This document shows positions 9,491 through 49,019 of a stretch of 64,000 nt of DNA, piece after piece. The notes beneath the pieces are model-generated. The model did not search any database, was not told the DNA's origin, and saw nothing but the letters and a program-made list of their open reading frames with translations. Positions within the stretch are counted from its first letter, which is position 1. Every line of letters starts with the position of its first letter. The position numbers and the translations under genes were made by a program. The DNA is from an uncultured Verrucomicrobiae bacterium (lineage in GTDB: Bacteria > Verrucomicrobiota > Verrucomicrobiia > Chthoniobacterales > Chthoniobacteraceae). Where the stretch lies: contig CAWIKF010000002.1 of assembly GCA_963836755.1 (NCBI GenBank), positions 576,001-640,000 on the forward strand, written 5' to 3'.

Positions 9491-9549
9491 CTCTAAGCCT
9501 CATGGTTAAAGGATTCAGGCGCTAAAGGGTGAGTTTGGCAGAATTTTTT

Positions 9550-29946: not shown

Positions 29947-31881
29947 CTACCTCGCCGGGGTATACCAGATCGGCGAGGTGTAGGCGCGCTCGGTGGTGGT
30001 CATGGGGACTTCCGGGGGCATTTTGATGCCGTAGTATTTCGCATCGTAGGCGGTCCACCGTGGGGTGGGGATTTCGATGACGCGGCCGTAGTAGAAGGAG
30101 CGCTGCGCGGGGTCGAAATCGGGGTCTTTCCAGACGGCGATGAGTTCGGGGGCGCCGATGGTGTTGGTCCACGAGGCGTTCGGGATATCGACGGTGCTGC
30201 CGACCGGCGGCAGCTTGCCATCCGCGCCGGGTTTGCGGTCCCCGCTCCACGCTACGTCATAAACTTTCTCCTGAGTCTCACCCTTCGCATCCAGCCAGCC
30301 TTTGATGATCTGGTAGCGGTCGAGATTGGCACCGATCGGGTCCTTGAGCGCGGCGACGAGGAAGGTGATGGTCTTGCCCTGCGGCGCGGCGCTGAGGTCG
30401 CCGCCCATCGGGACGCCTTTGGTATAGCCGATCTTTGCGGGCATGCGGTTGTTGGCGTCAGCCGGCTCGAAGTCGAAGCCGCCGAAGAAGCGGACGGCCA
30501 TGCGCGGGCCGGTGGTGGCGTAGGTCTCGCGGCGCTTCATGGCGTCGAAGATGGATTCGCGGGTATTCTCCTGCGCCCAGACGGCGGCATAGCCGGAGGA
30601 GGTCTGCTCCCAGCCCATGATGACGGCCTTGTCCGTCTTCACGAACGGGTGCGAGGTGCGGTCCGCGCTCGGCTCGGAGCTGGTGGTCTTGCCCATGAAG
30701 TTGTCCTCTTCCACGGCGGCGAGGGCGGTGTGCGCATCGGTGCTGCCGACCACGCCGAATTTGTAGGGATTGACGCCGAGCTCGGTTTCGAGCTTGAGGC
30801 CGTTCTTGAAGGCGGAGCGGGCGTATTCGAATTCCAGCATCTCGGGCTTCTTCAACTCGGTGAGGTCGAGGTTGCCCTTGTCCCAGCGCTCGAAGTTCGC
30901 GAACTCATCATTCGGCGAAAGGAAGGGGTGCGTCTCGCCGTCGCCCTTGATCTGCGTGATCTCGTAGAGCGGCTCCCAGCGCATGCGGCTCTCGGCATAC
31001 TCGCGGTCGATCTTCTTCCCGGTGAAGGACTCGATGATCGGGAACATGCGCCCGTTGCTCAGGTTGCCGTTGTGCGCGAGCGCGAGGATTTGCGCGCCGG
31101 ATTTCTCTTCACACATGGCCATCCATTTCCAGAGGTCGCGCGGATTCGGACTGCCGAGCGGCGGCTGGGTGGTGAAAGGCTCGACGAGACTGGCCTTCCG
31201 TCCATCGTCGCGAAAGATGATGTTGCGATGGAGGTTGTTGCCGCCGGCATTCGAGGTCCACTCGTAGCCGATGAAGGCGGTGAAGCGGCCGGGCTCGTTT
31301 GCCTCGTCCGCGGCCTTGATGACCTCCTGCCAGGCATTGCGATACGAGGAGGTGCCGGGCAGCGGCCATCCTTTGGGCAACTGGCCTTTGCCAAAGCTGG
31401 TGACGATGTCCACCGCCGCCTTCGCACCCTGGCCGGATTGGATCTCGTCATACCATTTACGGCCTTGCGGAGTCGCTAGAAGTGCGGGGTCGCCGCCGAT
31501 CAATTGAGGGAAAAAGCCAAAGCCGTCCGAATGATCTGCCACGACTTGGAAATCCAGAGGACGAGAGAGCTTAACGCGCTGTCCACTCGACGCCGTGATC
31601 TCCTCACCTTTGGCAAAACGATAGGCGTCCTTTGGGCCAAGCCGACAACCGAAAGCACCCGCGTCCACCGAGAATGACGTGTGCGTGTGCGTGTCGCCGA
31701 AGAGAGGGCGCGTGGGGAAGTTGCGGCCCGCGTAAGGCGAATACGGGGGCTTCGCGGGGAACACTTTGGCGGCAGTTTCGGCGTCGAGCGTGCCGATGTC
31801 GGTGGTGGTTTCCGGTTCCGCCGCAAAGAGGGGCAGCGCGAGGCTGGCGGCGAGGATGGCGAGGATGCGTGTAGTTTTCAT
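29947..31881 (-). CDS. DUF3604 domain exported protein (PHP-like metallohydrolase fold)
   Basis: FGDTHTHTSFSVDA, ADHSD, GYEWTS, NLHRN, HNGNLSNG, GSTDAHT, YATTGPR, ERAYTSPIWY; signal peptide. Confidence 0.9.
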   Translation of the reverse strand: MKTTRILAILAASLALPLFAAEPETTTDIGTLDAETAAKVFPAKPPYSPYAGRNFPTRPLFGDTHTHTSFSVDAGAFGCRLGPKDAYRFAKGEEITASSGQRVKLSRPLDFQVVADHSDGFGFFPQLIGGDPALLATPQGRKWYDEIQSGQGAKAAVDIVTSFGKGQLPKGWPLPGTSSYRNAWQEVIKAADEANEPGRFTAFIGYEWTSNAGGNNLHRNIIFRDDGRKASLVEPFTTQPPLGSPNPRDLWKWMAMCEEKSGAQILALAHNGNLSNGRMFPIIESFTGKKIDREYAESRMRWEPLYEITQIKGDGETHPFLSPNDEFANFERWDKGNLDLTELKKPEMLEFEYARSAFKNGLKLETELGVNPYKFGVVGSTDAHTALAAVEEDNFMGKTTSSEPSADRTSHPFVKTDKAVIMGWEQTSSGYAAVWAQENTRESIFDAMKRRETYATTGPRMAVRFFGGFDFEPADANNRMPAKIGYTKGVPMGGDLSAAPQGKTITFLVAALKDPIGANLDRYQIIKGWLDAKGETQEKVYDVAWSGDRKPGADGKLPPVGSTVDIPNASWTNTIGAPELIAVWKDPDFDPAQRSFYYGRVIEIPTPRWTAYDAKYYGIKMPPEVPMTTTERAYTSPIWYTPAR

Positions 31882-31902
31882 GGTTGGATTGGCTGCGGAT
31901 TT

Positions 31903-32886
31903 TTAGAAAAGGGAGATGCGCTGGATGACCCAAAACATCGCGACCGAGCCGATGGCATACGGTGGCAAAAGCTCGGCCCAGCGCGGAAGCGGCACGCGGA
32001 TGCGGCGCACGAGTGCGATGAGCGAAAGCACCGCGCCGATGAAGAGGAAGTGGCCGGCCTCAACGCCGATGCTGAAAAACAATAGCGCGGCGGGGAGGTG
32101 TCCCTGCGGCAGACCGGCTTCGCTCAAGCCGCTGGCAAATCCGAGGCCGTGCATCAGTCCAAATGCGAACGCTACGACCCACGGCGCTCGCGCAGTGATG
32201 CCCAGCCGTCCTTCGCGTTGATGCACGATTTCCGCCGCGACAAAGACGATGGAGAGTGCGATCACTGCCTCGACGGGCGCTTGCGGAATATGCACCCAGC
32301 CGAGCGTCGCCGCCGTGAGCGTGAGGCTGTGCGAAAGGGTGAACGCCGTGACGGTCTTCACCAGCTTCCAGCCGCCGCGCGTGATGATGAGCAGCGCGAG
32401 GATGAAGAGCAGGTGATCGATGCCGGTGAGGATGTGCTCGACCCCGAGCCGCAAATACACGCCCGCGACCTGCCACGCTGAGGTGCTGCGCGGCACCATC
32501 GCGGCGGGTGCACTAGGCGTAAGGCGCTGCGTCCATTCCGTGCTGTCGGCGAATTCGATCCGCACCAGCGCGTCGGTCATCGTGCCCTCGAGACCGGCGA
32601 TGCGCACCGTCTGCCCGCGCAGTTCCGGGTTGCGCAGCCGCCACGTCTGCACCGCCGCCGTGCCGGTGTTGCGCCCGTCCATGGGCGTCAGCTTTTCGCT
32701 CTTCCCGGAAAACTCCGGCGTGAGCGCGAGCCGCATCTCGCCGCGCATCGGCGTCTTCCACAGCACGGAAAACTCGCCCGCTTTTTCCTCGTGTAACTCG
32801 AGATACGCGGGACGGATTTCGTGCGCCTGCGCCGCCGCCGTCGCGAGGAAAAGCGCGCACGCAACGCGTTGAAGAATCCGCTTCAT
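31903..32886 (-). CDS. HupE/UreJ family membrane protein
   Basis: AHEIRPAYL, LGVEHILTGIDHLLF, FTLSHSLTL, FGLMHGLGFA. Confidence 0.9.
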   Translation of the reverse strand: MKRILQRVACALFLATAAAQAHEIRPAYLELHEEKAGEFSVLWKTPMRGEMRLALTPEFSGKSEKLTPMDGRNTGTAAVQTWRLRNPELRGQTVRIAGLEGTMTDALVRIEFADSTEWTQRLTPSAPAAMVPRSTSAWQVAGVYLRLGVEHILTGIDHLLFILALLIITRGGWKLVKTVTAFTLSHSLTLTAATLGWVHIPQAPVEAVIALSIVFVAAEIVHQREGRLGITARAPWVVAFAFGLMHGLGFASGLSEAGLPQGHLPAALLFFSIGVEAGHFLFIGAVLSLIALVRRIRVPLPRWAELLPPYAIGSVAMFWVIQRISLF

Positions 32887-33770
32887 CGCACGGCGTCCTC
32901 GCTCGCCTGCGGCACCGGCAACCGCCCATCGAGAGAACCAATCAGCGGCTTCACGCTCTCATCCACGGAGACGCCGTATTTTTTCAGCAAGCTCGCAAAG
33001 TAACCGGCGCTGCTCTCACGCTGCTGCTCGTCGCGCCAGCGTTCCTGCACTTGCGTCTGGACCTCGGCAAACTCCCGCAGCCGGCCCGGCGTCAGCTCCG
33101 ACACGCGCACGAGATGCACGCCATAGCCCGAAATGACCGGCCCGCTCCACACGTCCGGCTTGAGCTTCAACACAGCGCTGGCGAAATCCGGCCCGAACTG
33201 CGCCGCGACCGCCCGCTCGTCCGCATCGCGCATCTCCGCGTCGATCAGCAGTTGGTCGCCCATGGCCGCGGCATCCGCTCCCCGCGCAAGCTCCGGCAGC
33301 GCCTTCCGCGCGTCCGCCTCGGCATCCGCGCGTTTTTCACGGCTGAAGAAAACGTGGGTGAACGAGACGCGCGCCCCCATTTGAAAAAACTCCGGGTGCG
33401 CGTCGTAGAAGCGCCTCAAGTCCTGCTCCGTCGGCTCCCTGAGCCGTGCGGTATCGTCCACGAGAAAGGCGACCTTCTGCGCGAGACGGCGGCGGACGAT
33501 CGTGTCGTCTTCATCGAGCCGCATCGCGCGCGCCTCGCGGGCCAGCAACTCCTCTTTCAAGAAATCCGTGACCAGCCCGCGCAACTCCTCGCGCGACGGC
33601 TCCCGCCGCCACTGCCGCGACCAAGTCTCCTTCAGCCACGCCACCTCATTCGCCGTAATCCGCACCACCGGCACCGCCTCCACCTCGCCGCGCCGCAGCC
33701 ACGAGTAAGCCGCAAACAGCAGCCCACCGAGGACGACGAAATGAAGCAGCGGTTCGCGGAAGAGTTTCAT
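32883..33770 (-). CDS. Parvulin-like peptidyl-prolyl isomerase domain protein
   Basis: REPLLHF, LDEDDTIVRRRLAQK, WSGPVISGYGVHLV. Confidence 0.85.
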   Translation of the reverse strand: MKLFREPLLHFVVLGGLLFAAYSWLRRGEVEAVPVVRITANEVAWLKETWSRQWRREPSREELRGLVTDFLKEELLAREARAMRLDEDDTIVRRRLAQKVAFLVDDTARLREPTEQDLRRFYDAHPEFFQMGARVSFTHVFFSREKRADAEADARKALPELARGADAAAMGDQLLIDAEMRDADERAVAAQFGPDFASAVLKLKPDVWSGPVISGYGVHLVRVSELTPGRLREFAEVQTQVQERWRDEQQRESSAGYFASLLKKYGVSVDESVKPLIGSLDGRLPVPQASEDAVR

Positions 33771-34493: not shown

Positions 34494-34534
34494 TTGGCGG
34501 AAGGAGTGGGATTGAAACCCATTCCTTCCGCCAA
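34494..34534. other. att-like palindrome derived from the tRNA-Ser 3' end
   Basis: TTGGCGGAAGGAGTGGG-ATTGAAA-CCCATTCCTTCCGCCAA; both arms match the tRNA 3' end CCCACTCCTTCCGC. Confidence 0.85.
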
Positions 34535-34683: not shown

Positions 34684-35838
34684 ATGAGCAGCATCAACGC
34701 CGAAACTGAGGTCAAACGCCGTTACTCCCACGCGGCAAAAGTGCAGGAGGCGCAACTTTGCTGCCCGGTCGACTACGACAAAAAATTCCTCGAGGCGATC
34801 CCGGCGGAGGTCGTCGAAAAAGATTACGGCTGCGGCGACCCGAGCAAATATTTGAGGCCCGGCGAGACAGTGCTCGATCTCGGCTCCGGAACGGGAAAGA
34901 TCTGTTTCATCGCCGCGCAAGTCGTCGGGCCGACCGGACGGATCATCGGCGTCGACATGACCGATGAGATGCTGGAAGTGGCGCGACGAAATGCGCCAAT
35001 CGTCGCGGAGCGGATCGGCTACTCAAACGTGGAGTTTCGCAAAGGCTACATCCAGGACCTTGCTCTCGACTTGGAACTGCTCGACCGCGAGCTGCAAAAA
35101 AATCCGATCAGCGACATCGCGTCCTTCGTCGCCGCAAATGAGCGCGCGGAGGATATCCGGATTAAAAATCCGTTGATTGCATCGGACTCTGTCGACGTGG
35201 TTGTTTCCAACTGCGTGCTCAACCTTGTGGATGCAAAGTGCAAGCGGCAGCTATTCGAGGAAATCTTTCGCGTCTTGAAAAAAGGAGGCCGCGCGGTGAT
35301 CTCAGACATCGTTTCCGACGAGCCGGTGCCGGAGGAGATGCAGCAGGATCCGGAGCTATGGTCAGGATGCATTTCTGGCGCCTTGACGGAAGAAGGTTTC
35401 CTCAAAGCGTTTTCAGACGCCGGTTTTTACGGGATTGAAGTGCTGAAGTTTGATTCCATTCCATGGCGGACGGTGCAGGGTATCGAGTTTCGTTCGGTGA
35501 CGGTGCAGGCTATCAAAGGAAAGCAAGGTCCGTGCTTTGAAAGGAACCAGGCAGTCATCTACAAAGGTCCTTTCAAGGAAGTGCTCGATGACGACGGTCA
35601 TCGTATGGAGCGCGGCCGACGCTACGCGGTTTGCGATAAGACCTACAACCTTTACCGGAAGCAGCCTTATAACTCTTACTTCGAATTTCTGGAGCCTTTG
35701 ACGGATATCCCACTCGAAGAGGCGAAGCCTTTTGATTGTTCGCGCACTGCACTGCGGCACCCGAAGGAAACGAAAGGCCAGGACTACTCCGTCACGACCG
35801 AAGCTTCGGCCTGCTGCGACGCCGGCGGCTGCTGCTAA
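34684..35838 (+). CDS. Arsenite methyltransferase-like SAM-dependent methyltransferase with C-terminal extension
   Basis: [39 protein letters not shown]; ends CCDAGGCC. Confidence 0.85.
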
Positions 35839-35839
35839 T

Positions 35840-36754
35840 ATGGCTGAGACCCCACATTCGCGGGACGAGATGGAGAATCTCGTCGAGAATATCGTCGAGG
35901 CTTCGAAGTCCGTCTCGCCCGAGCGCACCAGTTCCCCGAACTGGATCGCGGGAGAATTTTTCGGCACGTTTCTTCTCGTCTTCTTCGGTTGCGGAAGCGT
36001 GGCCACTGCGGTGCTGACTGGTGCGCAGGTGGGAATTTTCCAGGTTGCCATCGTCTGGGGACTAGGCATCGCGACAGCGATCTATCTCACCGGTTCCTTG
36101 AGTGGTGCGCACCTAAATCCAGCCGTCACGACGGCGATGGCGGTCTGGTCGGATTTTCCGAAGAGAAAAGTCATTCCCTACATCTGCGTGCAGTTACTCG
36201 GCGCGCTTGTTGCCTCGTCAGTGCTCTTCGGCATTTACGGAGATCAGTTGAACGCTTACGAAAAGGAGCATCACATCACTCGCGGCGCGCAGGGGAGCGA
36301 GGCGTCTGCGATGATCTTCGGAGAATATTTCCCAAATCCCGGCGGCAAAGCTCTGGACGATGCCGCGCGTGAAAAGATTTCACACTTGGGCGCCTTTTGC
36401 ACGGAGGTGGTTGGAACTGCCATTTTGTTGCTGGTCATCTTTTGCGTGACTGATGCGAATAACGGCACGCGACCTCAGATCCTAACCGCGGCCACGATAG
36501 GTCTTACGGTTACTCTGCTAATTTCTCTTTTTGGGCCGCTGACGATGGCGTGCTTCAATCCCGCGCGCGATTTCGGCCCGAGACTATTTTCCTCAATCGC
36601 TGGATGGGGATCGATCCCTTTCACAACAAATGGCATCGGCTGGCTCTCAGTCTACCTCATCGCGCCGATCGTCGGAGGCTTGGTCGGTGGAGGAATCTAT
36701 CGTGCTTTCTTCGCGCCAAGCTATTGCACGACGGTGAACGATAGCGAACGCTAG
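35840..36754 (+). CDS. MIP family aquaglyceroporin
   Basis: SGAHLNPAVT and FNPARDFGPR (Asp after the second NPA, GlpF-type). Confidence 0.92.
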   Translation: MAETPHSRDEMENLVENIVEASKSVSPERTSSPNWIAGEFFGTFLLVFFGCGSVATAVLTGAQVGIFQVAIVWGLGIATAIYLTGSLSGAHLNPAVTTAMAVWSDFPKRKVIPYICVQLLGALVASSVLFGIYGDQLNAYEKEHHITRGAQGSEASAMIFGEYFPNPGGKALDDAAREKISHLGAFCTEVVGTAILLLVIFCVTDANNGTRPQILTAATIGLTVTLLISLFGPLTMACFNPARDFGPRLFSSIAGWGSIPFTTNGIGWLSVYLIAPIVGGLVGGGIYRAFFAPSYCTTVNDSER

Positions 36755-36772
36755 TCGGCAGTAACTTTGAGG

Positions 36773-37615
36773 CTAAGTCTGCTCCGGCCACGAAGGCCGC
36801 TGCTCGACGAAAGGCATTTCAATAATCGCCGGCAAAGCAAGTTCCTGCGGATCTTGATAAGCAGGAATACCGATGACCACATCACGGTTCGTGGTTGGCA
36901 GACGCAACGTGCGATGAAGCCAATCCCACAGAGTCAAGCCGCTCGACCAATTGGAGTTGGTTTCTCCTTCCAGAACGGAGTGATGAATTTCATGAAGACG
37001 CGGGGTGACGACAAACTTTCCCAGCCTTCTTTCCAGCTCGATGGGAAGTTCCACGTTAGAATGATGAAACAAGATTTCCATTAGCAGCGCTGTCTGCCAG
37101 ATCGAGAGAGCGCGCGGGCAAACTCCGATCAAACAAATTTGCGCAGCGCGCCAAAGGACGGATATCGTAAGTTCGCCAAAGTGAAATCGCACCGCAGTGG
37201 AAGCATCCATGTCGAGATCGACGTGGTGGACTTGATGGAAGCGCCATAGAAAAGGAACCCGATGAGTAAGGACGTGCCAAAGGTAAAGCGTGTAGTCCAG
37301 CAGTAGGATCGCGAGACTTATCTCGAACCATGAAGCTAGAGAAAACTGCTTCAGCAGCCCGATTCTCCGGCGTTCCACCCAGTGGGAAAGCGGTCCGGTA
37401 ACAGGTCTTTCAGCCAGTTGCAGAACGCCGGCGCTGATCCCGGCGAAGGCAAGATTGCGCAAGTCGCGCCGCGTTTTTGATTCCACGGAACGTCGTAAAG
37501 GTCTGCGAAGCTCCAGCACGACCAAACCTGCAAAAGTAGCTCCAACGAGCAATCCGTTAAGCCAGCCAGGAACACGTTTTGCACGAACATTTTCTGCAGC
37601 TTCTTCGCGTCTCAT
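36773..37615 (-). CDS. Sterol desaturase / fatty-acid hydroxylase family protein
   Basis: His boxes HVLTH, HQVHH, FHHSN, HEIHH; ATGA overlap with the rhodanese stop. Confidence 0.88.
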   Translation of the reverse strand: MRREEAAENVRAKRVPGWLNGLLVGATFAGLVVLELRRPLRRSVESKTRRDLRNLAFAGISAGVLQLAERPVTGPLSHWVERRRIGLLKQFSLASWFEISLAILLLDYTLYLWHVLTHRVPFLWRFHQVHHVDLDMDASTAVRFHFGELTISVLWRAAQICLIGVCPRALSIWQTALLMEILFHHSNVELPIELERRLGKFVVTPRLHEIHHSVLEGETNSNWSSGLTLWDWLHRTLRLPTTNRDVVIGIPAYQDPQELALPAIIEMPFVEQRPSWPEQT

Positions 37616-38136
37616 TTGGAAATAGCGGGGACATCTGCGCGGTATTTTTGATCCAGCAAAGCACCCCACGATGAATCGTAGGGATGAACCTTGTCAGTCA
37701 CGTGCCCATCCTTAAAGACCGGTCGGCCTTCATTCACCCATTGGAAGATCGAACCTTTGAGATCATAGGCATTTTTAAAACCTGCTTTTTTCAGCGCCTC
37801 AACGAAAGCGCTCGAGCGATAACCGACCGAGCAGTAGGCAACGATAGCGGTATCCTTCGACACCTCCAGCGCGGAAGCGGGCAATCCAGGATCGATGCGG
37901 CGAGCGCCTTGCAGATGACTCACTTCAAACTCCGCGGGAGTGCGGACATCGATCAAGAGCGGCGGCTTGCGGTGAGGATCATGAAGCCAGGCATCAAGCT
38001 CGGCGGGCTCGATCTGGGCGGCATCTGGAAATTTATGACGGATCGTATAATTGAGCAAACTCCACCGAATGCTTTGTGCCGAAGCCACACATCCGATTGC
38101 CAACAGTGCCAGAATCGTGCAGGAGAGCACTTTCAT
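37612..38136 (-). CDS. Rhodanese-like domain protein with N-terminal signal/anchor
   Basis: LIDVRTPAEFEVSHLQGA, YCSVGYRS, LKGSIFQW. Confidence 0.88.
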   Translation of the reverse strand: MKVLSCTILALLAIGCVASAQSIRWSLLNYTIRHKFPDAAQIEPAELDAWLHDPHRKPPLLIDVRTPAEFEVSHLQGARRIDPGLPASALEVSKDTAIVAYCSVGYRSSAFVEALKKAGFKNAYDLKGSIFQWVNEGRPVFKDGHVTDKVHPYDSSWGALLDQKYRADVPAISK

Positions 38137-38239
38137 TTCATAGGACTTCTGATCGATTTTTCATCCCTTCCCAGTATTCGAGTTCAACCACCTGTTCGGA
38201 TGAAATGGAGTTAATAAAGATGATGAAGCATCGCTGCTT

Positions 38240-38914
38240 ATGATTTCGGTGATCATCCCGGTTTACAACGAAGCTGCTCATCTTCCTGCTACTTTAGCAG
38301 CAGTAAAGGCCGCCCCAGAACCGCACGAGGTAATCGTGGTGGATGCGTCGAGCAACGATGACACTCCTTCACTGGCTGCTTCATGCGGAGCTCAGCTTCT
38401 TTCCTGCGTGCGCCGCCAACGGGCAAGCCAGATGAACATCGGCGCGCGGCATTCCACGGGCGATACTTTTCTGTTTCTGCACGCGGATACTCTCCTTCCG
38501 CCTTCGGCTTTGATGAAAGTAAATCAAGTCCTGCGAGATCCGCAGGTGGTCGGTGGGGCCTTTGCGCGGCGATTCCAATCCTCATCGATTTTTCTGCGAC
38601 TGACTTGCATGCTTGCGGAAATGCGGAGCCGTTGTGCGGGATGGTTTCTGGGGGACCAGGCGATGTTCGTCCGGCGGAAGGTGTTTGAAGAACTTGGCGG
38701 CTTTCGCGATCTCGATCTGTTCGAGGATTTGGACTTCGCTCGGAGGCTGCGCACGCGGGGACAGGTGGTGACGTTGCGCCCGCCTGTATTTTCTTCAGGC
38801 AGACGATTTGAGCGCTTGGGGCCGATCCCGACGACCTGCGCGGATTTTTTCCTGACTGTCGACTACATCTGCGGCATTGAGCCAAACCTACTCGCGAAAC
38901 GTCATCGCATTTAA
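38240..38914 (+). CDS. GT2 glycosyltransferase, TIGR04283-like (arsenosugar-associated)
   Basis: SVIIPVYNE, RASQMNIGA, FLHADT, GDQAMFVRR, GGFRDLDLFED, SSGRR. Confidence 0.85.
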   Translation: MISVIIPVYNEAAHLPATLAAVKAAPEPHEVIVVDASSNDDTPSLAASCGAQLLSCVRRQRASQMNIGARHSTGDTFLFLHADTLLPPSALMKVNQVLRDPQVVGGAFARRFQSSSIFLRLTCMLAEMRSRCAGWFLGDQAMFVRRKVFEELGGFRDLDLFEDLDFARRLRTRGQVVTLRPPVFSSGRRFERLGPIPTTCADFFLTVDYICGIEPNLLAKRHRI

Positions 38915-38947
38915 GACCGAGTTCCACAATAGTTCATAAAGCGAGTC

Positions 38948-39577
38948 ATGCACATCCTTGAGGTTCCGACTGTTTGTTTGATGCTGAAAGCTCCGATCCC
39001 AGGGCAGGTAAAAACTCGCTTGGCCGCATCAATAGGAGCTGAGCATGCGGCGCGGATTTATCGACGATTGGTGGAACATCAGCTCGCCAACATTCCTCAC
39101 CGCTGGCAGATTCACGTCTGCTTTTCGCCAGTTGACGCACTTTCGGAAATGAGGGAATGGCTCGGACCGAAGCTCCAATATTCGCCCCAAGCCAAAGGTG
39201 ATTTGGGCGAACGCCTTGTTCACGCCGTTGACTCGGTTTTTAGGTCGGGTTGCAAAAGATTGATTGTAATAGGGGGGGATTGTCCGTATCTCGACGAGTC
39301 TACTTTGGCGCAGGCAGCAAAGGAGCTCGCGAAGGCTGACGCGGTGCTCATCCCAGCTTTGGATGGAGGATACTGCTTAATCGGCGTAAAGGCTCCGCAT
39401 CCCGAAATTTTTCGCGACATCGACTGGAGCACTGGGGTCGTCTGCGCGCAAACCGAAGCAAAGATTGCGCAAGCTGGATTGACGCTGATTATTTTAAATC
39501 CGCCACTGGAGGATGTGGATGACGTGGAAAGCTGGCGACGTGCGGAGCGTGTCGTCCATTCTCAACTTCCCGAATGA
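38948..39577 (+). CDS. TIGR04282/DUF2064-like nucleotide-sugar transferase (arsenosugar-associated)
   Basis: KAPIPGQVKTRL, QAKGDLGERL, IGGDCP, PALDGGYCLIG, WST, DVDDVE. Confidence 0.88.
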   Translation: MHILEVPTVCLMLKAPIPGQVKTRLAASIGAEHAARIYRRLVEHQLANIPHRWQIHVCFSPVDALSEMREWLGPKLQYSPQAKGDLGERLVHAVDSVFRSGCKRLIVIGGDCPYLDESTLAQAAKELAKADAVLIPALDGGYCLIGVKAPHPEIFRDIDWSTGVVCAQTEAKIAQAGLTLIILNPPLEDVDDVESWRRAERVVHSQLPE

Positions 39578-39643
39578 TCTTCTCAGCTGTGATGCATCCG
39601 TGACGGGGATAGAGAGCGAACCAACCCAACACACGCCGACCTT

Positions 39644-40460
39644 ATGAAGACGAGCATCCTCCTTGGCATAGCTTTAGTAACTTTCACGCAAAGCTCAGCG
39701 TTTGCGGGTGAGAAAAACGTGGAAGTTAGTGTGCCGGCCGGCATCAATCACGGCGACTACGACCGGCTGCTGAAAAAATACGTGAACGATAACGGCTTGG
39801 TCGCTTATCAAAGTTGGAAAAATAACGCCGCGGATCGTGCAGCTCTGGAACAGTATATTGCGCAGTTCCAGCAGAAGGGATCTCCCGCCATAGGCGACGA
39901 AAAGTTTGCTTCGCTAATCAACGCTTACAACGCCGGCGTGCTGGAGTGGATCTTGCAAAAGTATCGGACAGAAAGCATCCAGATCTACAAGGACTCCTTT
40001 AGTGGAAAGCGATACAAAATCGGGAGCCAAACGGTCTCCCTTAACGATATCGAGCACGGGACGCTGCGGCCGCAATACGGTTACCGCACTCACGCCGCGC
40101 TTGTAGCGCCGCGAGAGTTGCCCACCTCTCCAACGCTCCGCCTACACTGCTGCCGCACTCGAAGAGCGGGACGCGCATGCCTATGAGGTATGGCTTGCAC
40201 GGAAAGACATGAATGAATTCAAGCCGCCTGAAAATTCAGTTGATATCTCCAGCATCTTCAAATGGTTCAAAAGCGATTTCGATGACGCGGGTGGAGTCAC
40301 AAAGATTCTTGCTCGTTACGCTCCTGAGCAATACCGGCAGTTCATCCGCGGCGGTAAATACGAAACGACTTATAAGACCTACAACTGGGGTTTGAATGAT
40401 CAGGGCGAACACGGTCACCACTACGGGACCACCAATCTTATTTTTGACAAGATATTCTAG
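39644..40460 (+). pseudogene. DUF547 exported protein, frameshifted at about 40105-40116
   Basis: INAYN, SLNDIEHG, HAALV then out-of-frame SCPPL...SSIFKWFKSDF...YNWGLN; two 1-nt deletions would restore VCAARSCPPL. Confidence 0.82.
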
Positions 40461-40511
40461 CCTAACTACGCCTAAGGCATCGGGAATTTTGGTGGCGTGG
40501 ACCATTGAACT

Positions 40512-41210
40512 GTGTTTGTGAACATTTTAAAGGGCCACTGGAAGTGGATCGTAATAGGTTTCATACTTTCATTTCTCTCAGCGGCGGCGACCCTGCTTCC
40601 TCTCAAAGAATGGGCAAAGACCTTTGTCGACCTCGTGCAGAGATTTGGTGCTTGGGGAGTCGTTATCTTCATCGGCATTTACGCTTTGGCGACTGTTCTT
40701 TTCGTTCCTGGCTGGATCCTCACCGTGAGCGCCGGCTTGATCTACGGCATCTTCGGCGGCACGGCTGTTGCGCTGATCGGAGCTACTATGGGCGCGCCAC
40801 TTGCCTTTCTCGTTGCTCGTTATCTGCTGCCAGGAAGGATCGAAAGTGGAGCGAAGGAGAATGACCGGTTCAAGAGTATTGACGAAGCTATTGGCAAGGA
40901 TGGCTGGAAGATTGTGGGACTACTGCGACTCAGTCCGTTGATACCATTCAATCTTAGCAACTACCTTTATGGTGTGACGTCTATCCGGCTCGTTCCTTAC
41001 GTGTTGGCTTCAGCAGTGGGAATGCTGCCTGGCACGTTGCTCTATTCTTATCTTGGCGCTGTGGGGAAAGTGACTGTAATTGGTGAAAAATCTGGTCACA
41101 GTCCCTTGCAGTATTTGATGCTCGCAGTCGGCCTGCTCGCTACCATAGTTGTGGCAATTTATGTTAGCCGTCTTGGCCGCAAAGCACTAACAAAGTCCGG
41201 TTCGACCTAA
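40512..41210 (+). CDS. TVP38/TMEM64 (DedA superfamily) membrane protein
   Basis: LFVPGWILT, AFLVARY, LLRLSPLIPFNLSNY, GMLPGT. Confidence 0.88.
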   Translation: MFVNILKGHWKWIVIGFILSFLSAAATLLPLKEWAKTFVDLVQRFGAWGVVIFIGIYALATVLFVPGWILTVSAGLIYGIFGGTAVALIGATMGAPLAFLVARYLLPGRIESGAKENDRFKSIDEAIGKDGWKIVGLLRLSPLIPFNLSNYLYGVTSIRLVPYVLASAVGMLPGTLLYSYLGAVGKVTVIGEKSGHSPLQYLMLAVGLLATIVVAIYVSRLGRKALTKSGST

Positions 41211-41234
41211 GCATAAGTGTGGGTCAGCGAGAGC

Positions 41235-42203
41235 TTATGCGGCGCTTTCCGCAGCGATGACGGCGACTGGACTATCGACGCGTTGCGCCGTGGCATGGGT
41301 CTTCATCGATTCGACAGCTTGCGAACCGACGTTGGAGCAAAGTGCTCCGAATTTATAGCAGGTGGAGCAAGCCTGATGATCCAGGCGGAATCCAGTGAGT
41401 GAGTCTTGAAGCGTGATTCCCAATTGTGCTCGTGGTTGATCGACGAGGACCGGGCAAACGTGGACTCCGCGATCGCTCACGATGCGGCTGTTGTGGCAAA
41501 GAAGTTGTTTCACATCATAACCGACCATCATTTCCTCGGTCACCCAATCGAACTTCTCATAGCCGCGATCGCGCGAAGCTTCTTCGCCGATCTTCAATGA
41601 TGGTAAAAGCTTCATGCGCGGACGGTCATAACCGATGGCGCGAAGGTGCCTTTTAAACTCCATGAGAAACTCCTCGTCATTTTCGATAGGCCAGGAACGC
41701 ATCGAGGTGATAATCGGCAAAAAGCCGTGGGCTGCGAGGAGCTTTACTCCAGCCATTGCAGCGTCAAAGGTTCCTTCACCACGGATGGGATCGTTTGTGG
41801 CTGGGGAGAATCCATCGATGCTGACACGAATCTCCAAGGAATACTTTGACTCGCCGCGAATCTGAGCGAGCCGCGCGACTTTTTCCTGCGAAAGCCTCGT
41901 CGCGTTAGTAAGAACAGTCGCCGGACCCGCCCCGAGCGTAGCTTTCAGGATCTGCATGATGTCTGGATTGATGAATGGCTCTCCGCCCGTGAAGTAGTAT
42001 TCCTTTACTCCCAGCTTTACCGACTCATCGAGATACTCCTTGAACTGCGCGAACTTCATCGGCCCGAAGGTATGGTTGTCGGGAGCGCATGAGATAAAGC
42101 AATGATGACAGCGAAGGTTGCAAAGTGTGCCGGAAATTTGAAACCATACCGCGTCCAGCGAGGTCAGCGGGAGGTAGGGGAAGCGAAGAGGCTGCTTATC
42201 CAC
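41235..42203 (-). CDS. Radical SAM protein with Cys-rich C-terminus (ArsS-related by context)
   Basis: CNLRCHHC, FTGGEPF, VLTN, RVSIDG; C-terminal C...CP...CSTC...C. Confidence 0.88.
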   Translation of the reverse strand: MDKQPLRFPYLPLTSLDAVWFQISGTLCNLRCHHCFISCAPDNHTFGPMKFAQFKEYLDESVKLGVKEYYFTGGEPFINPDIMQILKATLGAGPATVLTNATRLSQEKVARLAQIRGESKYSLEIRVSIDGFSPATNDPIRGEGTFDAAMAGVKLLAAHGFLPIITSMRSWPIENDEEFLMEFKRHLRAIGYDRPRMKLLPSLKIGEEASRDRGYEKFDWVTEEMMVGYDVKQLLCHNSRIVSDRGVHVCPVLVDQPRAQLGITLQDSLTGFRLDHQACSTCYKFGALCSNVGSQAVESMKTHATAQRVDSPVAVIAAESAA

Positions 42204-42310
42204 GCGGCGTCAAAGTCTCGTTCTGAGGATTTCCGCCGTTTGGCCAGAAATCGGATTTGCAAAAGCGTGCGAGCGCCTTCGCCAGATTTCGTTTTTGGGT
42301 AGATGCATGT

Positions 42311-43105
42311 TCATGAAGTCAGCTCATCGGCGCGTTGAATGGAAACTGCTGCCTCGCTTGGCGGCGGCACGATGTTTTCGCGCAAGTTCCCGGCGTAATA
42401 GCTGCGATGCAAGCGTCCGGGCGGAAGCCCGCAATGAAACAGCGCGAGGAAAAAAGCGTTTTGCAGCGTCACTTTCCACGCACCCTGATCCATGTGCCGG
42501 CGCGGCGAGGTCTTCATCGGCGGATCCAACATCACGATCGCTCCGCTCCGCCGGAGTCGCCGTGAAAATTCCACATCCTCCATCAGCGGGATCGACGCGA
42601 AACCGCCGAGCCGGGAAAACATTTCGCGCCGCACAAAAATGCTCTGATCGCCATACAACGTCCCAAAAAGACGGCAGTGCAGCCGCTCCCATTTTTCGAG
42701 CCAGAGCAGGTGAGGATGCCGTTCGTCGAACTTCCGATAAAACGCGCCGCCGACGAAATCGCGCCGGCTCATCGCTCGCGCCAGCGCGGAGGTTTGTGCG
42801 CGCGTGAGGAGCGAGTCCGCATGATGAAAAAGCAGAACGTCGCCGGTGGCCAGGCTCGCGCCGAGATTCATCTGCGGGCCTCGAGCCGGTTTCGCGACAG
42901 TGCAGAATCGAACATTCTCAATCTCCGCGAGATCCTCGAATGTCTCGTCTTCGTTGACGCCGACGAGGATCGTTTCAAGCACGCCAGGAAAAGTTGCCCA
43001 TTCCTTTGCCAGCTCCGCAACCGCTTTGCTTTCTTTCCAGCACGGCACGATCAGGCTAATGGTCGCCAAAGATTCGCGCGGGCGGCTGACTTGATCGTTC
43101 TCCAT
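42311..43105 (-). CDS. Second TIGR04283-like GT2 glycosyltransferase
   Basis: RGPQMNLGA, FHHADS, YGDQSIFVRR, GGFASIPLMED, TSPRR. Confidence 0.85.
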   Translation of the reverse strand: MENDQVSRPRESLATISLIVPCWKESKAVAELAKEWATFPGVLETILVGVNEDETFEDLAEIENVRFCTVAKPARGPQMNLGASLATGDVLLFHHADSLLTRAQTSALARAMSRRDFVGGAFYRKFDERHPHLLWLEKWERLHCRLFGTLYGDQSIFVRREMFSRLGGFASIPLMEDVEFSRRLRRSGAIVMLDPPMKTSPRRHMDQGAWKVTLQNAFFLALFHCGLPPGRLHRSYYAGNLRENIVPPPSEAAVSIQRADELTS

Positions 43106-43117
43106 TAAACTTTGATT

Positions 43118-43918
43118 TCAAAAACGGCCGCGCGCTCGCTCCTTTGCCGGCAGCACTTCGAGACAAGTAGTCCACCATCCCGTCTCAATAGTCTCGACGA
43201 ATTCCTCCGGCAAACGCTCCTGCCGCATCTCGGCCGCGAGACTTTGATGGTCGTATCGCAGCGGCACGAAGTCGACCGCGAGCGAGTCGCCGGCAATGTT
43301 TAAAATCGCATACCAGACGTTTGTGCCGCCGTCATTTGCGGGCCGGCCAATCGCGCCGCAGTTGACTACATGTTTCCCGTCCGCGACTTCGCGGTGCCAG
43401 TGCAAACCGGTGTGTGTGACGACGATGATATCGGCATGAAATTCGTCGCAAAGCCGCGCCAGGAAAGCATCCGCAGCCGATGTCTCCCAAAGAAATTCGT
43501 TCGTTTGCCGGGGCGATCCATGGCAAAGCAGAATGTCAAAGCTGCCGACGTGCAGCCGTATTTCTGCCGGCAAAGCTTTGAGCCAATCCTTATTTTCCAC
43601 TGACGTGTTTTTGAAGGTGTAATCGTAGGAAAGTTTCGCGAAATAGTTGTCCAGCGCGTCGGTGTAGCCGCAATGGCAATCGACAAGTCCGTTACCGACG
43701 GAATGGTCGTAATTTCCCTGCACCACCGGAATCGCGCTCTCCCAAAGCAACGGAAACACCAAGTCCGGGTGCGGTCCAAACGCGCCCAGGTCGCCGAGGC
43801 AATACGCTTTGTGAATCCCGCGCTTTTTTAAATCGTCGATCACCGCTCGCAGCGCGAGATGATTGCTATAAACGCCGCCAAAAACCGCGATCTGTTCCGT
43901 CGACGGAGCGCCGCTCAT
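43118..43918 (-). CDS. Calcineurin-like metallophosphoesterase with atypical metal motifs
   Basis: CLGDL, QGNYD, CHGSP, VNCGAIGRP; first motif reads GGVYSN. Confidence 0.82.
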   Translation of the reverse strand: MSGAPSTEQIAVFGGVYSNHLALRAVIDDLKKRGIHKAYCLGDLGAFGPHPDLVFPLLWESAIPVVQGNYDHSVGNGLVDCHCGYTDALDNYFAKLSYDYTFKNTSVENKDWLKALPAEIRLHVGSFDILLCHGSPRQTNEFLWETSAADAFLARLCDEFHADIIVVTHTGLHWHREVADGKHVVNCGAIGRPANDGGTNVWYAILNIAGDSLAVDFVPLRYDHQSLAAEMRQERLPEEFVETIETGWWTTCLEVLPAKERARGRF

Positions 43919-44069
43919 TCTCAGATTTTCGCGAGCTCCAGCGGTTGCCATGCAATGACCATTAGCAAAGATACGAAACTTTGTCCGGCGTGGGATGCAG
44001 GCGCGATTATTTTGATGTGTCGATTACTTGCAAGCTTCGCGCAGCCGTGATCGGCTGAGGGACTTTTCG

Positions 44070-45212
44070 ATGAAAAAAAGAATCGCGATCATTGGCGCAG
44101 GCCCGATCGGTATCGAGGCGGCGCTCGCGGCCACCTCGACAGGATTCGACGTGGAAGTTTTCGAGCGCGGCGAGCTCGCCGATTCCGTGCGAAAATGGGG
44201 ACACGTCCGGATGTTCTCGCCATTCGGGATGAATTCTTCGCCCGAAGGACGCGCGCGGCTGGAACGATGCGGCTTCGCACTACCGCAAAATGAAGCGCTG
44301 CTGAGCGGCGCGGAATTCGTGCAGAGCTATCTGACGCCGCTCGCAGAATTGCTTGCGGCGTCCATTCATCTTCACACTGAAGTCCTCGCCATCGGCAGAA
44401 AAGGAATACGCAAAACGGAAATGATCGGCGATCCCGCGCGTGCGCAGCGGCCTTTCCGGCTCATGTTCCGCGAAAAAGATGCAGAGCATTTTTCCGAGCA
44501 TGATTTTGTTTTTGATTGCAGCGGCACATTTCTGAATCCGAACCCGCTCGGCGACGCTGGTCTCCCTGCATTGGGCGAAATGGCGATGCGTGATTCCATT
44601 TCATACGGGATTCCTGATGTTCGCTATTTTTCCGGCCGACGGATTTTGGTGGTTGGCGGCGGACATTCCGCGGCGACGCTGGTTCGCGGTCTTTCCGAGG
44701 TCGGCGCGGCGATGACGTGGTCGATCCGCAAGTCACTTGCAGTTCCATGCTCGCGCATTCCCGACGATCCTCTCACGGCGCGCGATGAACTTTCACGCGA
44801 AGCGAATGCGATCGCGGAGAAGATCGATTTTCGCCCCGGCACAACGGTTCAGGCCGTTCGAAAAAATGGATCAGGTGTGTCGGTCCTTTTGGAGCGCGAC
44901 GGCGCCGAGGAAAATCTGCACGTCGATCACATCCTCGCCGCGACCGGATTTCGACCGGATCCAAATCTCGCGCGCGAGCTACAAGTGCAGACCTGCTGGG
45001 CCACGGAAGGCGCTTACCATCTCGCTGCGCAGCTCCTCGGCGAAGAAGCCGGTGACTGCCTCGCGGCACCGATGAGCGGAGTGGAGACGCTGTTTCATCC
45101 CGAGCCGGGCTACTTCATTCTCGGCATGAAAAGTTACGGACGCAGTCCCGATTTTTTGATTCGCACCGGTCATCAGCAAATTGCCGCGGTGCTCGCTCAC
45201 TTGGAAAAATAG
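44070..45212 (+). CDS. FAD/NAD(P)-dependent oxidoreductase (ars-associated flavoprotein type)
   Basis: IIGAGPIG, WGHVRMFSP, VGGGHSA, ATGFRPD, HPEPGYFILGMKSYGR. Confidence 0.85.
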   Translation: MKKRIAIIGAGPIGIEAALAATSTGFDVEVFERGELADSVRKWGHVRMFSPFGMNSSPEGRARLERCGFALPQNEALLSGAEFVQSYLTPLAELLAASIHLHTEVLAIGRKGIRKTEMIGDPARAQRPFRLMFREKDAEHFSEHDFVFDCSGTFLNPNPLGDAGLPALGEMAMRDSISYGIPDVRYFSGRRILVVGGGHSAATLVRGLSEVGAAMTWSIRKSLAVPCSRIPDDPLTARDELSREANAIAEKIDFRPGTTVQAVRKNGSGVSVLLERDGAEENLHVDHILAATGFRPDPNLARELQVQTCWATEGAYHLAAQLLGEEAGDCLAAPMSGVETLFHPEPGYFILGMKSYGRSPDFLIRTGHQQIAAVLAHLEK

Positions 45213-46654: not shown

Positions 46655-46679
46655 AGCGCGGGTTTGCGCTACTTTTTTT
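46655..46679 (+). terminator. Weak intrinsic terminator after hydA
   Basis: AGCGCG-GGTT-TGCGCT followed by AC and T7. Confidence 0.4.
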
Positions 46680-47169
46680 AGTCGTGTTTGCGGAGCGGAA
46701 CTGGTTTGTGCGGCAGGAACTTTTTCCCGATCAACCAGTCGAGCGAAAATATGCCCGGGCCGAAAACGAAAATCAGAACCGACGCCAACAGAAACAAAAA
46801 AGCGGCGTCGGAGACGAACGCATCGGGATCGTGAAAGATATTGAGCACCGTCTGTCGGCTCGCGGTGAGGTAGGCGACGCAAAAGTTGATGATCAGCGGG
46901 ATCGTGATCAAGCGCGATGCGAGACCCACCAGCAGCAAGAGCCCGCAAACGCATTCCGTGAGTCCGGATATATAAACATTCAGCACCGGAAACGGCACTC
47001 CCCATTCAGTGAAGCGCTGCGCCATCGCCGGCACGTCGGAAAGATGCGCATGGCCGGAGACGAACATCTGCCAGCCCCAATAAAGACGGATCAAAAGAAG
47101 AAGCGGCGATTGCAACTTGCTTGCAAGTGCAATCAACCAGCCATAAGCCGAAGCGAGCATTGGGATCAT
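46678..47169 (-). CDS. DoxX family membrane protein (MNIO operon)
   Basis: RLYWGW, ECVCGLLLLVGLASR, GPGIFSLD; ATGA overlap with the upstream gene. Confidence 0.88.
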   Translation of the reverse strand: MIPMLASAYGWLIALASKLQSPLLLLIRLYWGWQMFVSGHAHLSDVPAMAQRFTEWGVPFPVLNVYISGLTECVCGLLLLVGLASRLITIPLIINFCVAYLTASRQTVLNIFHDPDAFVSDAAFLFLLASVLIFVFGPGIFSLDWLIGKKFLPHKPVPLRKHD

Positions 47170-48131
47170 TTTTGAAAGCGGCAAAACCAGCCGAGTGAAG
47201 TCCAGTTATCGAACCAATCTTTGATCTGCACCGTCCAGTCGACATCGACACGGGTGGATGCGGAAAGCGCATCAACACAGGCTTCCTCGACCGTTGCGCC
47301 GGCGCGAAGTGCGTTGAGAATTGCGAACGCTTCCGCGTCAAGGCGCTTGTAGTAAAGCATGTTGTCGTGACGGTGGACGGAGAGGTAAATGCACTCGCGC
47401 CGCGGGAGTCGGATGCGTTTTTTGCGCGAGAGATCGCGCGGCATTGCATCGACCACGTTGCTCGCCTCGCTTCGAAGAACGTCTATGTCGCGTTTTTTCA
47501 CCGCGAGCAAAAATTCGTCCACGGCAAAATTTACTTCCAAGAGTGAAAGGTAAGGCTGCAAGCCGAGCCGCAGCTTGTCCGGCGTCGTATCGAGCACATC
47601 GTCTGGCGTGATTGCGCGGCGTGCTTCGCCATCGAAAGCGACGACCTGTGCCCATTCGAAGCGCGCCATGTCGAGCGCGAGTTCTTCGCGCGGCGCGGTC
47701 CAGTGCGGTTCCTCGCGCAGGAATTGCTCGAGCCGGCTGCCGAGATTGCGCAGCGTGAAAGAGGCCGATTGATATTTCGCGAGATAAGCCGTCGCCAGCT
47801 TCATGAATCGGCGCTCGCCGAGCACCGCGCGGAGTCCGGGATAATCTTCGTAGAGACAATCAAGGATGCGAAACCAATAGCAGCGATTGTAAATTTCGAG
47901 CCGATCGAATGACGTGAGCCGGTCGTTCGGCTTGATGAATTGCGCCGCAAAATCGCGCATGTCGCTGCCGTCCGTCCAGCGCGGCTGCATGCGATCCTCG
48001 GCGGTAAGCGGGCGGAAAAGTGCGCCGGCCATCTGCTGCTGCAGATCCTTCAACCGCGCGCGCGAATGCGCATCAGGCAGCGGGCGAAGTGGCGAGCTGA
48101 TCGACGAACTTGTTGGCTTTGAGCGCTTCAT
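47166..48131 (-). CDS. DUF2063-type MNIO partner protein
   Basis: RLEIYNRCYWFR..CLYEDYPGL, ARFEWA; directly after DUF692. Confidence 0.85.
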   Translation of the reverse strand: MKRSKPTSSSISSPLRPLPDAHSRARLKDLQQQMAGALFRPLTAEDRMQPRWTDGSDMRDFAAQFIKPNDRLTSFDRLEIYNRCYWFRILDCLYEDYPGLRAVLGERRFMKLATAYLAKYQSASFTLRNLGSRLEQFLREEPHWTAPREELALDMARFEWAQVVAFDGEARRAITPDDVLDTTPDKLRLGLQPYLSLLEVNFAVDEFLLAVKKRDIDVLRSEASNVVDAMPRDLSRKKRIRLPRRECIYLSVHRHDNMLYYKRLDAEAFAILNALRAGATVEEACVDALSASTRVDVDWTVQIKDWFDNWTSLGWFCRFQK

Positions 48132-48924
48132 TATGGACTTCGTCAAACGACGGGATGCGGTCATCCCATTCGAGCAGAGTGGCGGTGCGTCCGACGAGCT
48201 TGATCGCGTGCTGATACATTTTCCAGACGGGATCGAGCACCGGATGATCGTGCGTATCGAGGATGAATTTTTCGAATTTTGAATGCCCCGCAATGTGAAT
48301 CTGCCCGACGCGATGGTGCGGGACATTGTTTAAATAATCGTAAGGATCAAAATTGTGGTTCTGCGACGAGACATAGATGTTGTTCACATCGAGCAAAATT
48401 CCGCAGTCCGCGCGCTCGGCGACCTCGCTCAGAAATTCCCACTCGGTCATTTCCGATGCGTGAAATTCTGCGTAGCTGCTGACGTTTTCCACGCAAATCG
48501 GGACCTCGAGAAAATCGCGCGCTTCGCGGATGTTGTCCGCCGTCGCCTGCGCCGCGCCGAACGTGTAAGGCATCGGCAGCAGGTCGTGCGTGTAGCGTCC
48601 ATCGACGCTGCCCCAGCAAAGATGATCGCTGAGCCACGGCGTGTTTGTGCGCTTCACGAGTCGTTTTAATTTTTTTAAATGCTCGCGGTTCAGCCGATCC
48701 GCGGAGCCAAAATACATCGCGACGCCGTGCTGCACCACGCGGTATTGCTCGAGGATTTGGTCGAGCACTTCGAGCGGCCGTCCGCCATCGACCATGAAGT
48801 TTTCCGAGATGATTTCGAACCAATCGACGACCGGTTTTTCCGCCAGGATGTGCCGGTAATGCGGCACGCGCAGGCCGATGCCGATGCCGTATTCGGTAAA
48901 ATTATTGAAAGGATTTGCCGGCAT
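48073..48924 (-). CDS. Multinuclear non-heme iron oxidase (DUF692/MNIO)
   Basis: GIGLRVPHY, EIISENF, HGV, SDHLCW, ENVSSY, LLDVNNIYVS, HIAGH, DTHD, LEWD. Confidence 0.95.
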   Translation of the reverse strand: MPANPFNNFTEYGIGIGLRVPHYRHILAEKPVVDWFEIISENFMVDGGRPLEVLDQILEQYRVVQHGVAMYFGSADRLNREHLKKLKRLVKRTNTPWLSDHLCWGSVDGRYTHDLLPMPYTFGAAQATADNIREARDFLEVPICVENVSSYAEFHASEMTEWEFLSEVAERADCGILLDVNNIYVSSQNHNFDPYDYLNNVPHHRVGQIHIAGHSKFEKFILDTHDHPVLDPVWKMYQHAIKLVGRTATLLEWDDRIPSFDEVHNEALKANKFVDQLATSPAA

Positions 48925-48938
48925 TTTCTTTTGAAAGC

Positions 48939-49008
48939 GAGGGTCGGAGGATTAAACTCCGGCCCTCGCCAACAATGCTTCGGCCGCTCGCCGCTGGGCA
49001 AGCGGCCG
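48939..49008 (-). promoter_or_regulatory. Two tandem stem-loops between the precursor and MNIO genes
   Basis: 48981-49008: 12-bp stem (G-U pair on the minus strand); 48939-48967: 11-bp stem. Confidence 0.6.
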
Positions 49009-49019
49009 CAATGCTTTTG

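Follow-up and report, generated by a model that had tools for sequence, protein, structure and literature searches.

A probable variant arsenosugar/arsenolipid locus of an uncultured Verrucomicrobiae bacterium with a radical SAM enzyme from outside the ArsS family

The radical S-adenosylmethionine (SAM) enzyme ArsS adenosylates the trivalent dimethylarsenical DMAs(III) to 5′-deoxy-5′-dimethylarsinoyl-adenosine (DDMAA; PMC13598754, with ArsS chemistry described also in PMC12159101). In these two reviews, ArsS and ArsL are the only radical SAM enzymes named as forming a carbon-arsenic (C-As) bond. The ArsM-ArsS system, in which ArsS corresponds to the family TIGR04167 and is partnered by TIGR04282, TIGR04283 and TIGR04169, is among the known systems closest to a locus at positions 34684–45212 of a 64,000-nucleotide stretch of DNA (the window) from an uncultured Verrucomicrobiae bacterium. 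The locus encodes an ArsM-type methyltransferase, a radical SAM enzyme called here rSAM-X, a Car1-like cysteine protein of the metallophosphoesterase fold (the phosphoesterase) and an ArsV-like flavoprotein. It probably specifies a variant arsenosugar/arsenolipid pathway, in which rSAM-X acts in place of ArsS and in a predicted complex with the Car1-like protein. From the observed gene content, motifs, co-occurrence, mutual exclusion and gene fusions, and from the predicted complex, we infer all of the chemistry of this pathway.

The locus shares with the ArsM-ArsS system an orthologous ArsM, TIGR04282 and TIGR04283 proteins that score above their family cut-offs, DUF547 and DedA proteins, a GlpF-type channel and, at a second locus of the same genome only, a MerA-like reductase. 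The radical SAM enzymes are equally long and match in the layout of their C-terminal cysteines. The difference is that the window has no ArsS, rSAM-X being only about 19% identical to it and failing the family cut-off, and that rSAM-X is accompanied by the Car1-like protein and the ArsV-like flavoprotein, both seldom found at ArsS loci. The arsinothricin pathway (ArsL/ArsM/ArsQ) also combines ArsM, for which NF040538 is the best model in the window, with a radical SAM enzyme that forms a C-As bond. However, the window differs by its glycosyltransferases, no ArsL model is found among the best 25 of 45 matches, and rSAM-X lacks a C-terminal RCCLKC motif such as PMC13598754 describes. The locus seems likely to work like the ArsM-ArsS system, with a radical SAM enzyme that lies outside the ArsS family.

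rSAM-X (41235..42203, minus strand) is an unnamed enzyme, for which an identification as ArsS itself is rejected, as TIGR04167 gives 51.8 bits against a cut-off of 300; no protein in the whole genome exceeds this cut-off. The CxxxCxxC motif (C28/C32/C35) and C236, C250, C279 and C282 are invariant in 36 homologs, and the alignment with the ArsS profile extends over 99.6% of the length, with five C-terminal cysteines aligned. The ArsS hidden Markov model (HMM) gives rSAM-X proteins a median of 43 bits versus 13 bits for 57 SPASM controls, while in the reverse test the rSAM-X HMM separates ArsS less well (62 versus 47). A FastTree phylogeny of all 110 rows places rSAM-X and ArsS together on one side of a branch, opposite the SPASM controls, and the same branch is found by IQ-TREE for 55 of the 110 rows, including 29 SPASM controls, with a Shimodaira–Hasegawa-like approximate likelihood ratio (SH-aLRT) of 96. 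The Pfam family of the ArsS-type C-terminal cysteine domain, which we take to be DUF3641, has no match at E ≤ 1 among 36 rSAM-X members. Foldseek of the rSAM-X model (predicted local distance difference test, pLDDT, 91.6) returns only generic SPASM/twitch enzymes (BlsE, SkfB, anSME), and searches of the Atlas return only generic names. The profile and tree comparisons support the placement of rSAM-X as a putative sister family of ArsS. No paper on this family was found in the literature searched, which does not extend to most subscription journals.

The distribution of the family is that of an apparent substitute for ArsS. A set of 301 planctomycete genomes, the phylum of the Phycisphaerae genome G385, was searched for rSAM-X (present at an E of 1e-25 or better), ArsS, TIGR04282 and ArsM. 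rSAM-X is present in 39 of them and ArsS in 89, and both occur together in 1 genome versus 11.5 expected; within the 149 genomes that contain TIGR04282, the overlap of 1 compares with 22.2 expected. TIGR04282 accompanies rSAM-X in 38 of 39 genomes and ArsS in 87 of 89, and is found in 25 of the 174 other genomes, the corresponding numbers for ArsM being 31/39, 58/89 and 12/174. Among 41 genomes, the source genome and 40 relatives, rSAM-X occurs in 7 and ArsS in 9 with an overlap of 0; exactly one of the two is present in 16 of the 17 genomes with TIGR04282, and the remaining 24 genomes have neither. Close homologs carry names that indicate Chthoniobacterales within Verrucomicrobiota, and in a wider sample of this phylum, the bacterium's own, where the search covered rSAM-X, it is present in 14 of 351 genomes. 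The exclusion statistics overstate the case, since the genomes include kin, which do not count as independent, and many of them are incomplete, and it is the pattern, not the p-values, that serves as evidence. This near-strict exclusion suggests that the output of the two enzymes is redundant.

The neighbours of rSAM-X were counted at genome loci and at the best 80 of 520 metagenome matches, excluding duplicates, the second copy within the source genome and ArsM-centred loci. At the loci of close members (at least 41% identity, with 1.5 kb of flank on both sides) the phosphoesterase gene adjoins in 43 of 50 cases and the flavoprotein gene in 27 of 50, whereas the 16 mapped ArsS loci contain the phosphoesterase in 1 case and the flavoprotein in none. 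Distant members have ArsM nearby in 20 of 30 loci. Six long proteins were examined out of 150 listed rSAM-X representatives: two are fusions of the flavoprotein with rSAM-X (P0002, P0004), two of rSAM-X with ArsM (P0014, P0107) and one of TIGR04282 with rSAM-X (P0144), while the sixth has no family match. rSAM-X and ArsM also lie in one stop-free frame at 9 fetched loci. In planctomycetes, open frames of 825–1372 codons (L158, L159, L160 and others) combine ArsM and extra domains with an N-terminal half that resembles rSAM-X. At a locus from another phylum (L129) the genes for TIGR04283, the channel (MIP), ArsM, the phosphoesterase, rSAM-X, the flavoprotein, DedA and DUF547 are collinear on one strand, and a Roseomonas plasmid carries TIGR04282, DUF547, two radical SAM enzymes, a Phn-type ATP-binding cassette (ABC) importer, the phosphoesterase, a VTT protein and flavoproteins. 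A scan of genome contigs gives 2 loci only.

It is rather unlikely that rSAM-X forms a C-As bond in a product unlike that of ArsS, an organoarsenical so far undescribed, either by acting on As(III) or the trivalent monomethylarsenical MAs(III) held by its partner or by moving another fragment of SAM, as ArsL does. Such a product would be in line with redox partners that are common beside rSAM-X and rare at ArsS loci, with the 19% identity to ArsS and with a genome that has the cluster and no ArsM (G022). However, the downstream transferases and the ArsM orthologs are common to both systems, and the near-strict mutual exclusion suggests a redundant output.

The phosphoesterase (43118..43918, minus strand, the open reading frame extending to 43951) is a protein of 266 residues, counted from the second methionine, with a SapH/PH1004-type fold. 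Its cysteines C81, C83 and C252 are invariant in 68 of 68 homologs, as is the replacement of the Asp and His of motif I (DxH) by Gly and Tyr, whereas the ars-operon homologs, to which it is 31–36% identical, keep DxH. All 4 of the annotated plasmid homologs examined come from ars operons, and C81/C83 align with C74/C76 of the homolog from a Paraclostridium ars operon. In the arsenate reductase Car1 of Rufibacter tibetensis, Cys74 and Cys76 are essential according to PMC12124457; the phosphoesterase shares with Car1 the fold and, by its alignment with the ars-operon homolog, a CxC pair with these numbers. It differs from the Car1-type proteins by an additional C-terminal tail with the third invariant cysteine, which forms part of a predicted interface with rSAM-X. 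The predicted rSAM-X:phosphoesterase complex scores 0.92 versus 0.02 for the best of 3 controls; of 157 solved complexes 116 attain the mark set for such predictions, against 2 of 215 mismatched pairs, and with the alignments used here these counts are rough. At least 98% of contacts are common to the runs, the partner pLDDT is at least 93, and the interface involves the family-specific tail beside C252, with P257, E260 and R261 invariant in 38 rows. The modelling supports binding of the phosphoesterase by rSAM-X. Given that ArsS is absent here, that rSAM-X almost never shares a genome with it and that a Car1-like partner is predicted, a second and undescribed route to arsenic-containing sugars or lipids is likely.

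The flavoprotein (44070..45212, plus strand) is an FAD/NAD(P)H protein related to ArsV-type proteins. Along almost its entire length it is 37–39% identical to flavoproteins of ars operons, and all 4 homologs examined are located in such operons, two of them flanked by arsR and arsK and one following marR-arsN. C330 is invariant in 42 of 42 sequences and is shared with the ars-operon homologs; the ArsO model scores 27.5, below its cut-off of 425. ArsV oxidizes MAs(III) (10.1101/2021.08.12.456183; PMC10080717). The comparison made here is with flavoproteins in arsV-type operon positions, and the protein of the window differs in lacking the cysteine-rich C-terminal tail of ArsV and in its linkage or fusion to a radical SAM enzyme. 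A second paralog, 47% identical, is found at C2:1589461-1590648 with a gene for a nucleoside-recognition-gate membrane protein next to it; L019 shows a similar arrangement.

The initial annotation had taken the absence of arsR, arsC and acr3 as favouring biosynthesis over detoxification. None of the three is indeed seen in the window, but the argument is weaker than claimed, because the phosphoesterase (Car1-type) and the flavoprotein (ArsV-type) are related to ars-operon proteins. Family searches of the whole genome find no acr3, arsB, arsH, arsK, arsA, arsD or glutaredoxin-type arsC, and a thioredoxin-type ArsC-like gene at C2:1766586-1767032 (L182) is an orphan, no ars gene being seen in the 1.5 kb around it; detoxification could therefore be a further role of ArsM, the flavoprotein and the channel. 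A self-contained set of detoxification genes (Car1-like reductase, ArsM, ArsV-like oxidase and efflux channel) that merely lies beside an unrelated glycolipid-modifying cassette, perhaps decaying here, is considered very unlikely. The resistance-operon homologs of both proteins, the missing acr3 and arsB, and a locus with five strand blocks, one frameshift and one deletion would fit such a juxtaposition, but rSAM-X is tied to TIGR04282 genome-wide (38/39 versus 25/174), and the fusions link the radical enzyme with both sets of genes.

The methyltransferase (34684..35838, plus strand; 384 residues) is a long form of ArsM, and its best NCBIfam matches are all ArsM models, although it stays below each of their cut-offs (349.5/500 for NF040538, and 206.6/263 and 131.2/400 for the others). 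The cysteines noted earlier are all in place: C26/C27 in LCCP, C50 in GCG, C177 in SNC, C229 in SGC, and the terminal C377/378 and C383/384. In the solved algal ArsM (4fr0/4kw7), the residues aligned with C50, C177 and C229 are C72, C174 and C224, presumably the catalytic ones; relative to that enzyme, the ArsM of the window carries an insertion of about 38 residues. It is 64–80% identical to the ArsM proteins of all 9 relatives with ArsS, in 8 of which the gene is adjacent to canonical ArsS, and in the 301-genome sample 36 of 47 orthologs lie no more than 7 kb from ArsS. A substrate other than arsenic, whether metalloid or otherwise thiophilic (Se, Sb), is hardly plausible for the pathway, with the arsenic labels inherited from annotation. 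No paper linking TIGR04282, TIGR04283, DUF2064 or DUF547 with arsenic, and none showing a function for TIGR04282 or TIGR04283, was found in the literature searched, which covers few subscription journals, and ArsV acts with Sb(III) too, according to 10.1101/2021.08.12.456183; the ArsM cysteines are conserved, however, and three independent genes have relatives in ars operons. A PiT/CysP-family anion transporter, a candidate arsenate importer, adjoins ArsM in rSAM-X and ArsS clusters alike (L049, L077, L207, L208).

Beyond the overstated statistics, several observations weigh against rSAM-X as the counterpart of ArsS in an arsenosugar-type pathway. rSAM-X scores far under the ArsS cut-off, HMMs of the C-terminal half fail to separate ArsS from generic SPASM proteins (medians of about 0 bits), and on rSAM-X the model of the Rv1681 family, which is outside the tree, outscores that of ArsS (84.4 versus 51.8). 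ArsM lies within about 5 kb of rSAM-X in only 4 of 34 close loci, and the pathway is therefore usually dispersed and the window unusually complete. The phosphoesterase seldom accompanies distant members of rSAM-X (2 of 30 loci) and is also found in ArsS genomes without rSAM-X (G015, G029). Both copies of the cluster in the source genome are partly decayed. Finally, genome G022 (one contig, 96% complete) has a syntenic cluster with an ABC importer and no ArsM match, which fits a salvage function, where the module would import environmental organoarsenicals and recycle or dismantle them, the radical enzyme cleaving or remodelling the C-As bond. In L015, L021, L022, L023, L024, L084 and L109, too, rSAM-X has ABC importers (SBP_bac_6, PhnD-type, phosphate-type) or symporters as neighbours. 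Salvage nevertheless appears quite improbable: G029 has the same type of importer beside canonical ArsS and ArsM, the rSAM-X-ArsM fusions point to methylation that feeds the radical step, and the source genome has no match to the importer binding protein.

In the preferred biosynthetic pathway, the GlpF-type channel would admit arsenite, or the Car1-like protein would reduce arsenate, and two rounds of methylation by ArsM would turn As(III) into DMAs(III). rSAM-X would then add the 5′-deoxyadenosyl radical to the trivalent arsenic to yield dimethylarsinoyl-adenosine, as ArsS does, with the docked three-cysteine protein keeping the arsenic trivalent and handing it over. The ArsV-like flavoprotein may oxidize escaped trivalent methylarsenicals as self-protection, or may set the oxidation state of the product. 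The two weakest steps come last: TIGR04282 and TIGR04283 would transfer the arsinoyl-ribose to a glycerol or lipid acceptor, and DedA, DUF547, the hydroxylase, the rhodanese and a second radical SAM enzyme, rSAM-Y, of which only the second locus has an intact gene, would see to the export and tailoring of a product bound to the membrane.

The second locus (C2:369178-376029, L017) is another copy of the cluster, 66–87% identical and truncated at both ends. Its TIGR04282 gene is frameshifted and it has no phosphoesterase, while rSAM-X, DedA, DUF547, the MerA-like disulfide reductase and rSAM-Y are intact, so that the two copies have suffered complementary losses. In the window, a 5′ remnant of 34 codons (42210..42314, minus strand) matches the N-terminus of the rSAM-Y at C2:369749-371188, the rest of the gene being deleted. 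In profile comparisons, the tetraether lipid synthase Tes/GDGT-MAS (PDB code 7tol) is the only radical SAM match of rSAM-Y at E ≤ 0.01 (E of 1.5e-12). rSAM-Y is nevertheless far under the Tes cut-off: the genome copy has no match to NF045702 (Tes, cut-off 450) at E ≤ 0.1, and a Roseomonas homolog reaches 90.2 bits. It also differs from Tes by its frequent fusion to TIGR04283, seen in 28 of the 120 best homologs and in L015. rSAM-Y occurs in 11 of the 41 genomes, in 7 with ArsS and in 4 with rSAM-X, and is therefore a downstream partner of both types of pathway, one that hints at a lipid product. A bolder scheme, tentative and on the doubtful side, makes rSAM-X and its Car1-like partner a two-protein C-As bond former, in which the phosphoesterase, repurposed, reduces and delivers the arsenic and which, together with TIGR04282, TIGR04283 and the Tes-like enzyme as modifier of the lipid tails, leads to a new class of bacterial arsenolipids, with many uncultured producers in soils and sediments that surveys relying on ArsS would overlook.

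If rSAM-X does replace ArsS, it would be a third family of C-As-forming radical SAM enzymes, beyond the reach of surveys based on TIGR04167, and the number of predicted producers in the 301 planctomycete genomes would rise by about 40% (39 with rSAM-X versus 89 with ArsS). The later conversion of dimethylarsinoyl-adenosine to arsenosugars and arsenolipids is undescribed, and the locus provides candidates for its steps; rSAM-X and the phosphoesterase constitute a directly testable pair of enzyme and partner.

The initial annotation described the locus as one putative cluster of 12 genes for organoarsenical biosynthesis, with ArsM and ArsS chemistry implied; the thiolation, desaturation and DedA-mediated flipping that it proposed are conjectural. 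The 12 open reading frames are real, with the coordinates and family types given there, and the link to arsenic and to arsenosugar-type biosynthesis is strongly supported by co-conservation, gene fusions and the context of orthologs; the chemistry is to be amended, the radical SAM enzyme being of a different family that substitutes for ArsS. A single 12-gene operon is rejected, as the genes form five blocks on alternating strands (++/--/++++/---/+): ArsM-MIP (plus), rhodanese-hydroxylase (minus), TIGR04283a-TIGR04282-DUF547-DedA (plus), phosphoesterase-TIGR04283b-radical SAM (minus) and flavoprotein (plus), with intergenic gaps of −4 to 107 bases within blocks. A fixed 12-gene unit is likewise rejected: the modules form a mosaic and frequently lie apart from one another. 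The content of G and C is 53.8% over 34684-42203 versus 58.0% for the genome. Counts of promoters and terminators are at the level of chance (3 versus 5.5 and 18 versus 14.7), and an Rfam search gives no match.

GlpF-type channels conduct glycerol besides arsenite. The aquaglyceroporin (MIP; 35840..36754, plus strand) exceeds the TIGR00861 cut-off (189.3/171.25), is closer to GlpF (E of 3e-54) than to AqpZ (2e-21), as had been proposed, and has the NPA and NPARD motifs. Its gene adjoins ArsM also in L129, with rSAM-X, and in L195, with ArsS, where the order is ArsS-MIP-ArsM.

The putative desaturase (36773..37615, minus strand) is a membrane protein of PF04116 (79.8 bits) with His boxes at 114, 127 and 208. 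As this family comprises fatty-acid hydroxylases and sterol desaturases, a hydroxylase is equally possible. A PF04116 gene is located near rSAM-X in L015, L025, L027, L092, L099, L143 and L146. The rhodanese-domain protein (37612..38136, minus strand; PF00581) has a signal-like N-terminal segment and scores below the NF045521 cut-off (102.7/145); its gene is kept beside the cluster in L015.

The glycosyltransferases TIGR04283a (38240..38914, plus strand; 225.9/182) and TIGR04283b (42311..43105, minus strand; 182.6/182), the latter fused to rSAM-Y in relatives, and the CofC-like transferase of TIGR04282/DUF2064 (38948..39577, plus strand; 192.5/134) all pass the HMM cut-offs of the families to which they had been assigned. 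The DUF547 gene (39644..40461, plus strand) is frameshifted near 40108-40117, and its two frames match an intact paralog of 272 residues at 77% and 85%; the site is outside the coverage of public contigs, and the frameshift may be a real lesion or an assembly error. The DedA/TVP38 membrane protein (40512..41210, plus strand) contains a VTT domain (PF09335, 95.6 bits).

Upstream of ArsM, a 17-pair hairpin is located at 34494-34534. Over 17 bases, its left arm exactly matches the reverse complement of the tRNA-Ser(CGA) 3′ end, 25 kb away (9402-9491), and its right arm is a near-direct copy. The hairpin may mark the distal attachment site of an island, comprising the kdp operon, ppk2 and other genes, between it and the tRNA gene. 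A GC-rich block (64%) at 29947-33770 on the minus strand contains genes for DUF3604, HupE/UreJ-like and PPIC rotamase proteins. On the other side of the locus, the minus strand at 46678-49352 carries a Bufferin-type cluster for a ribosomally synthesized and post-translationally modified peptide, composed of a cysteine-rich precursor, an MNIO maturase that exceeds the BufB cut-off (346.6/310), a DUF2063 partner and DoxX.

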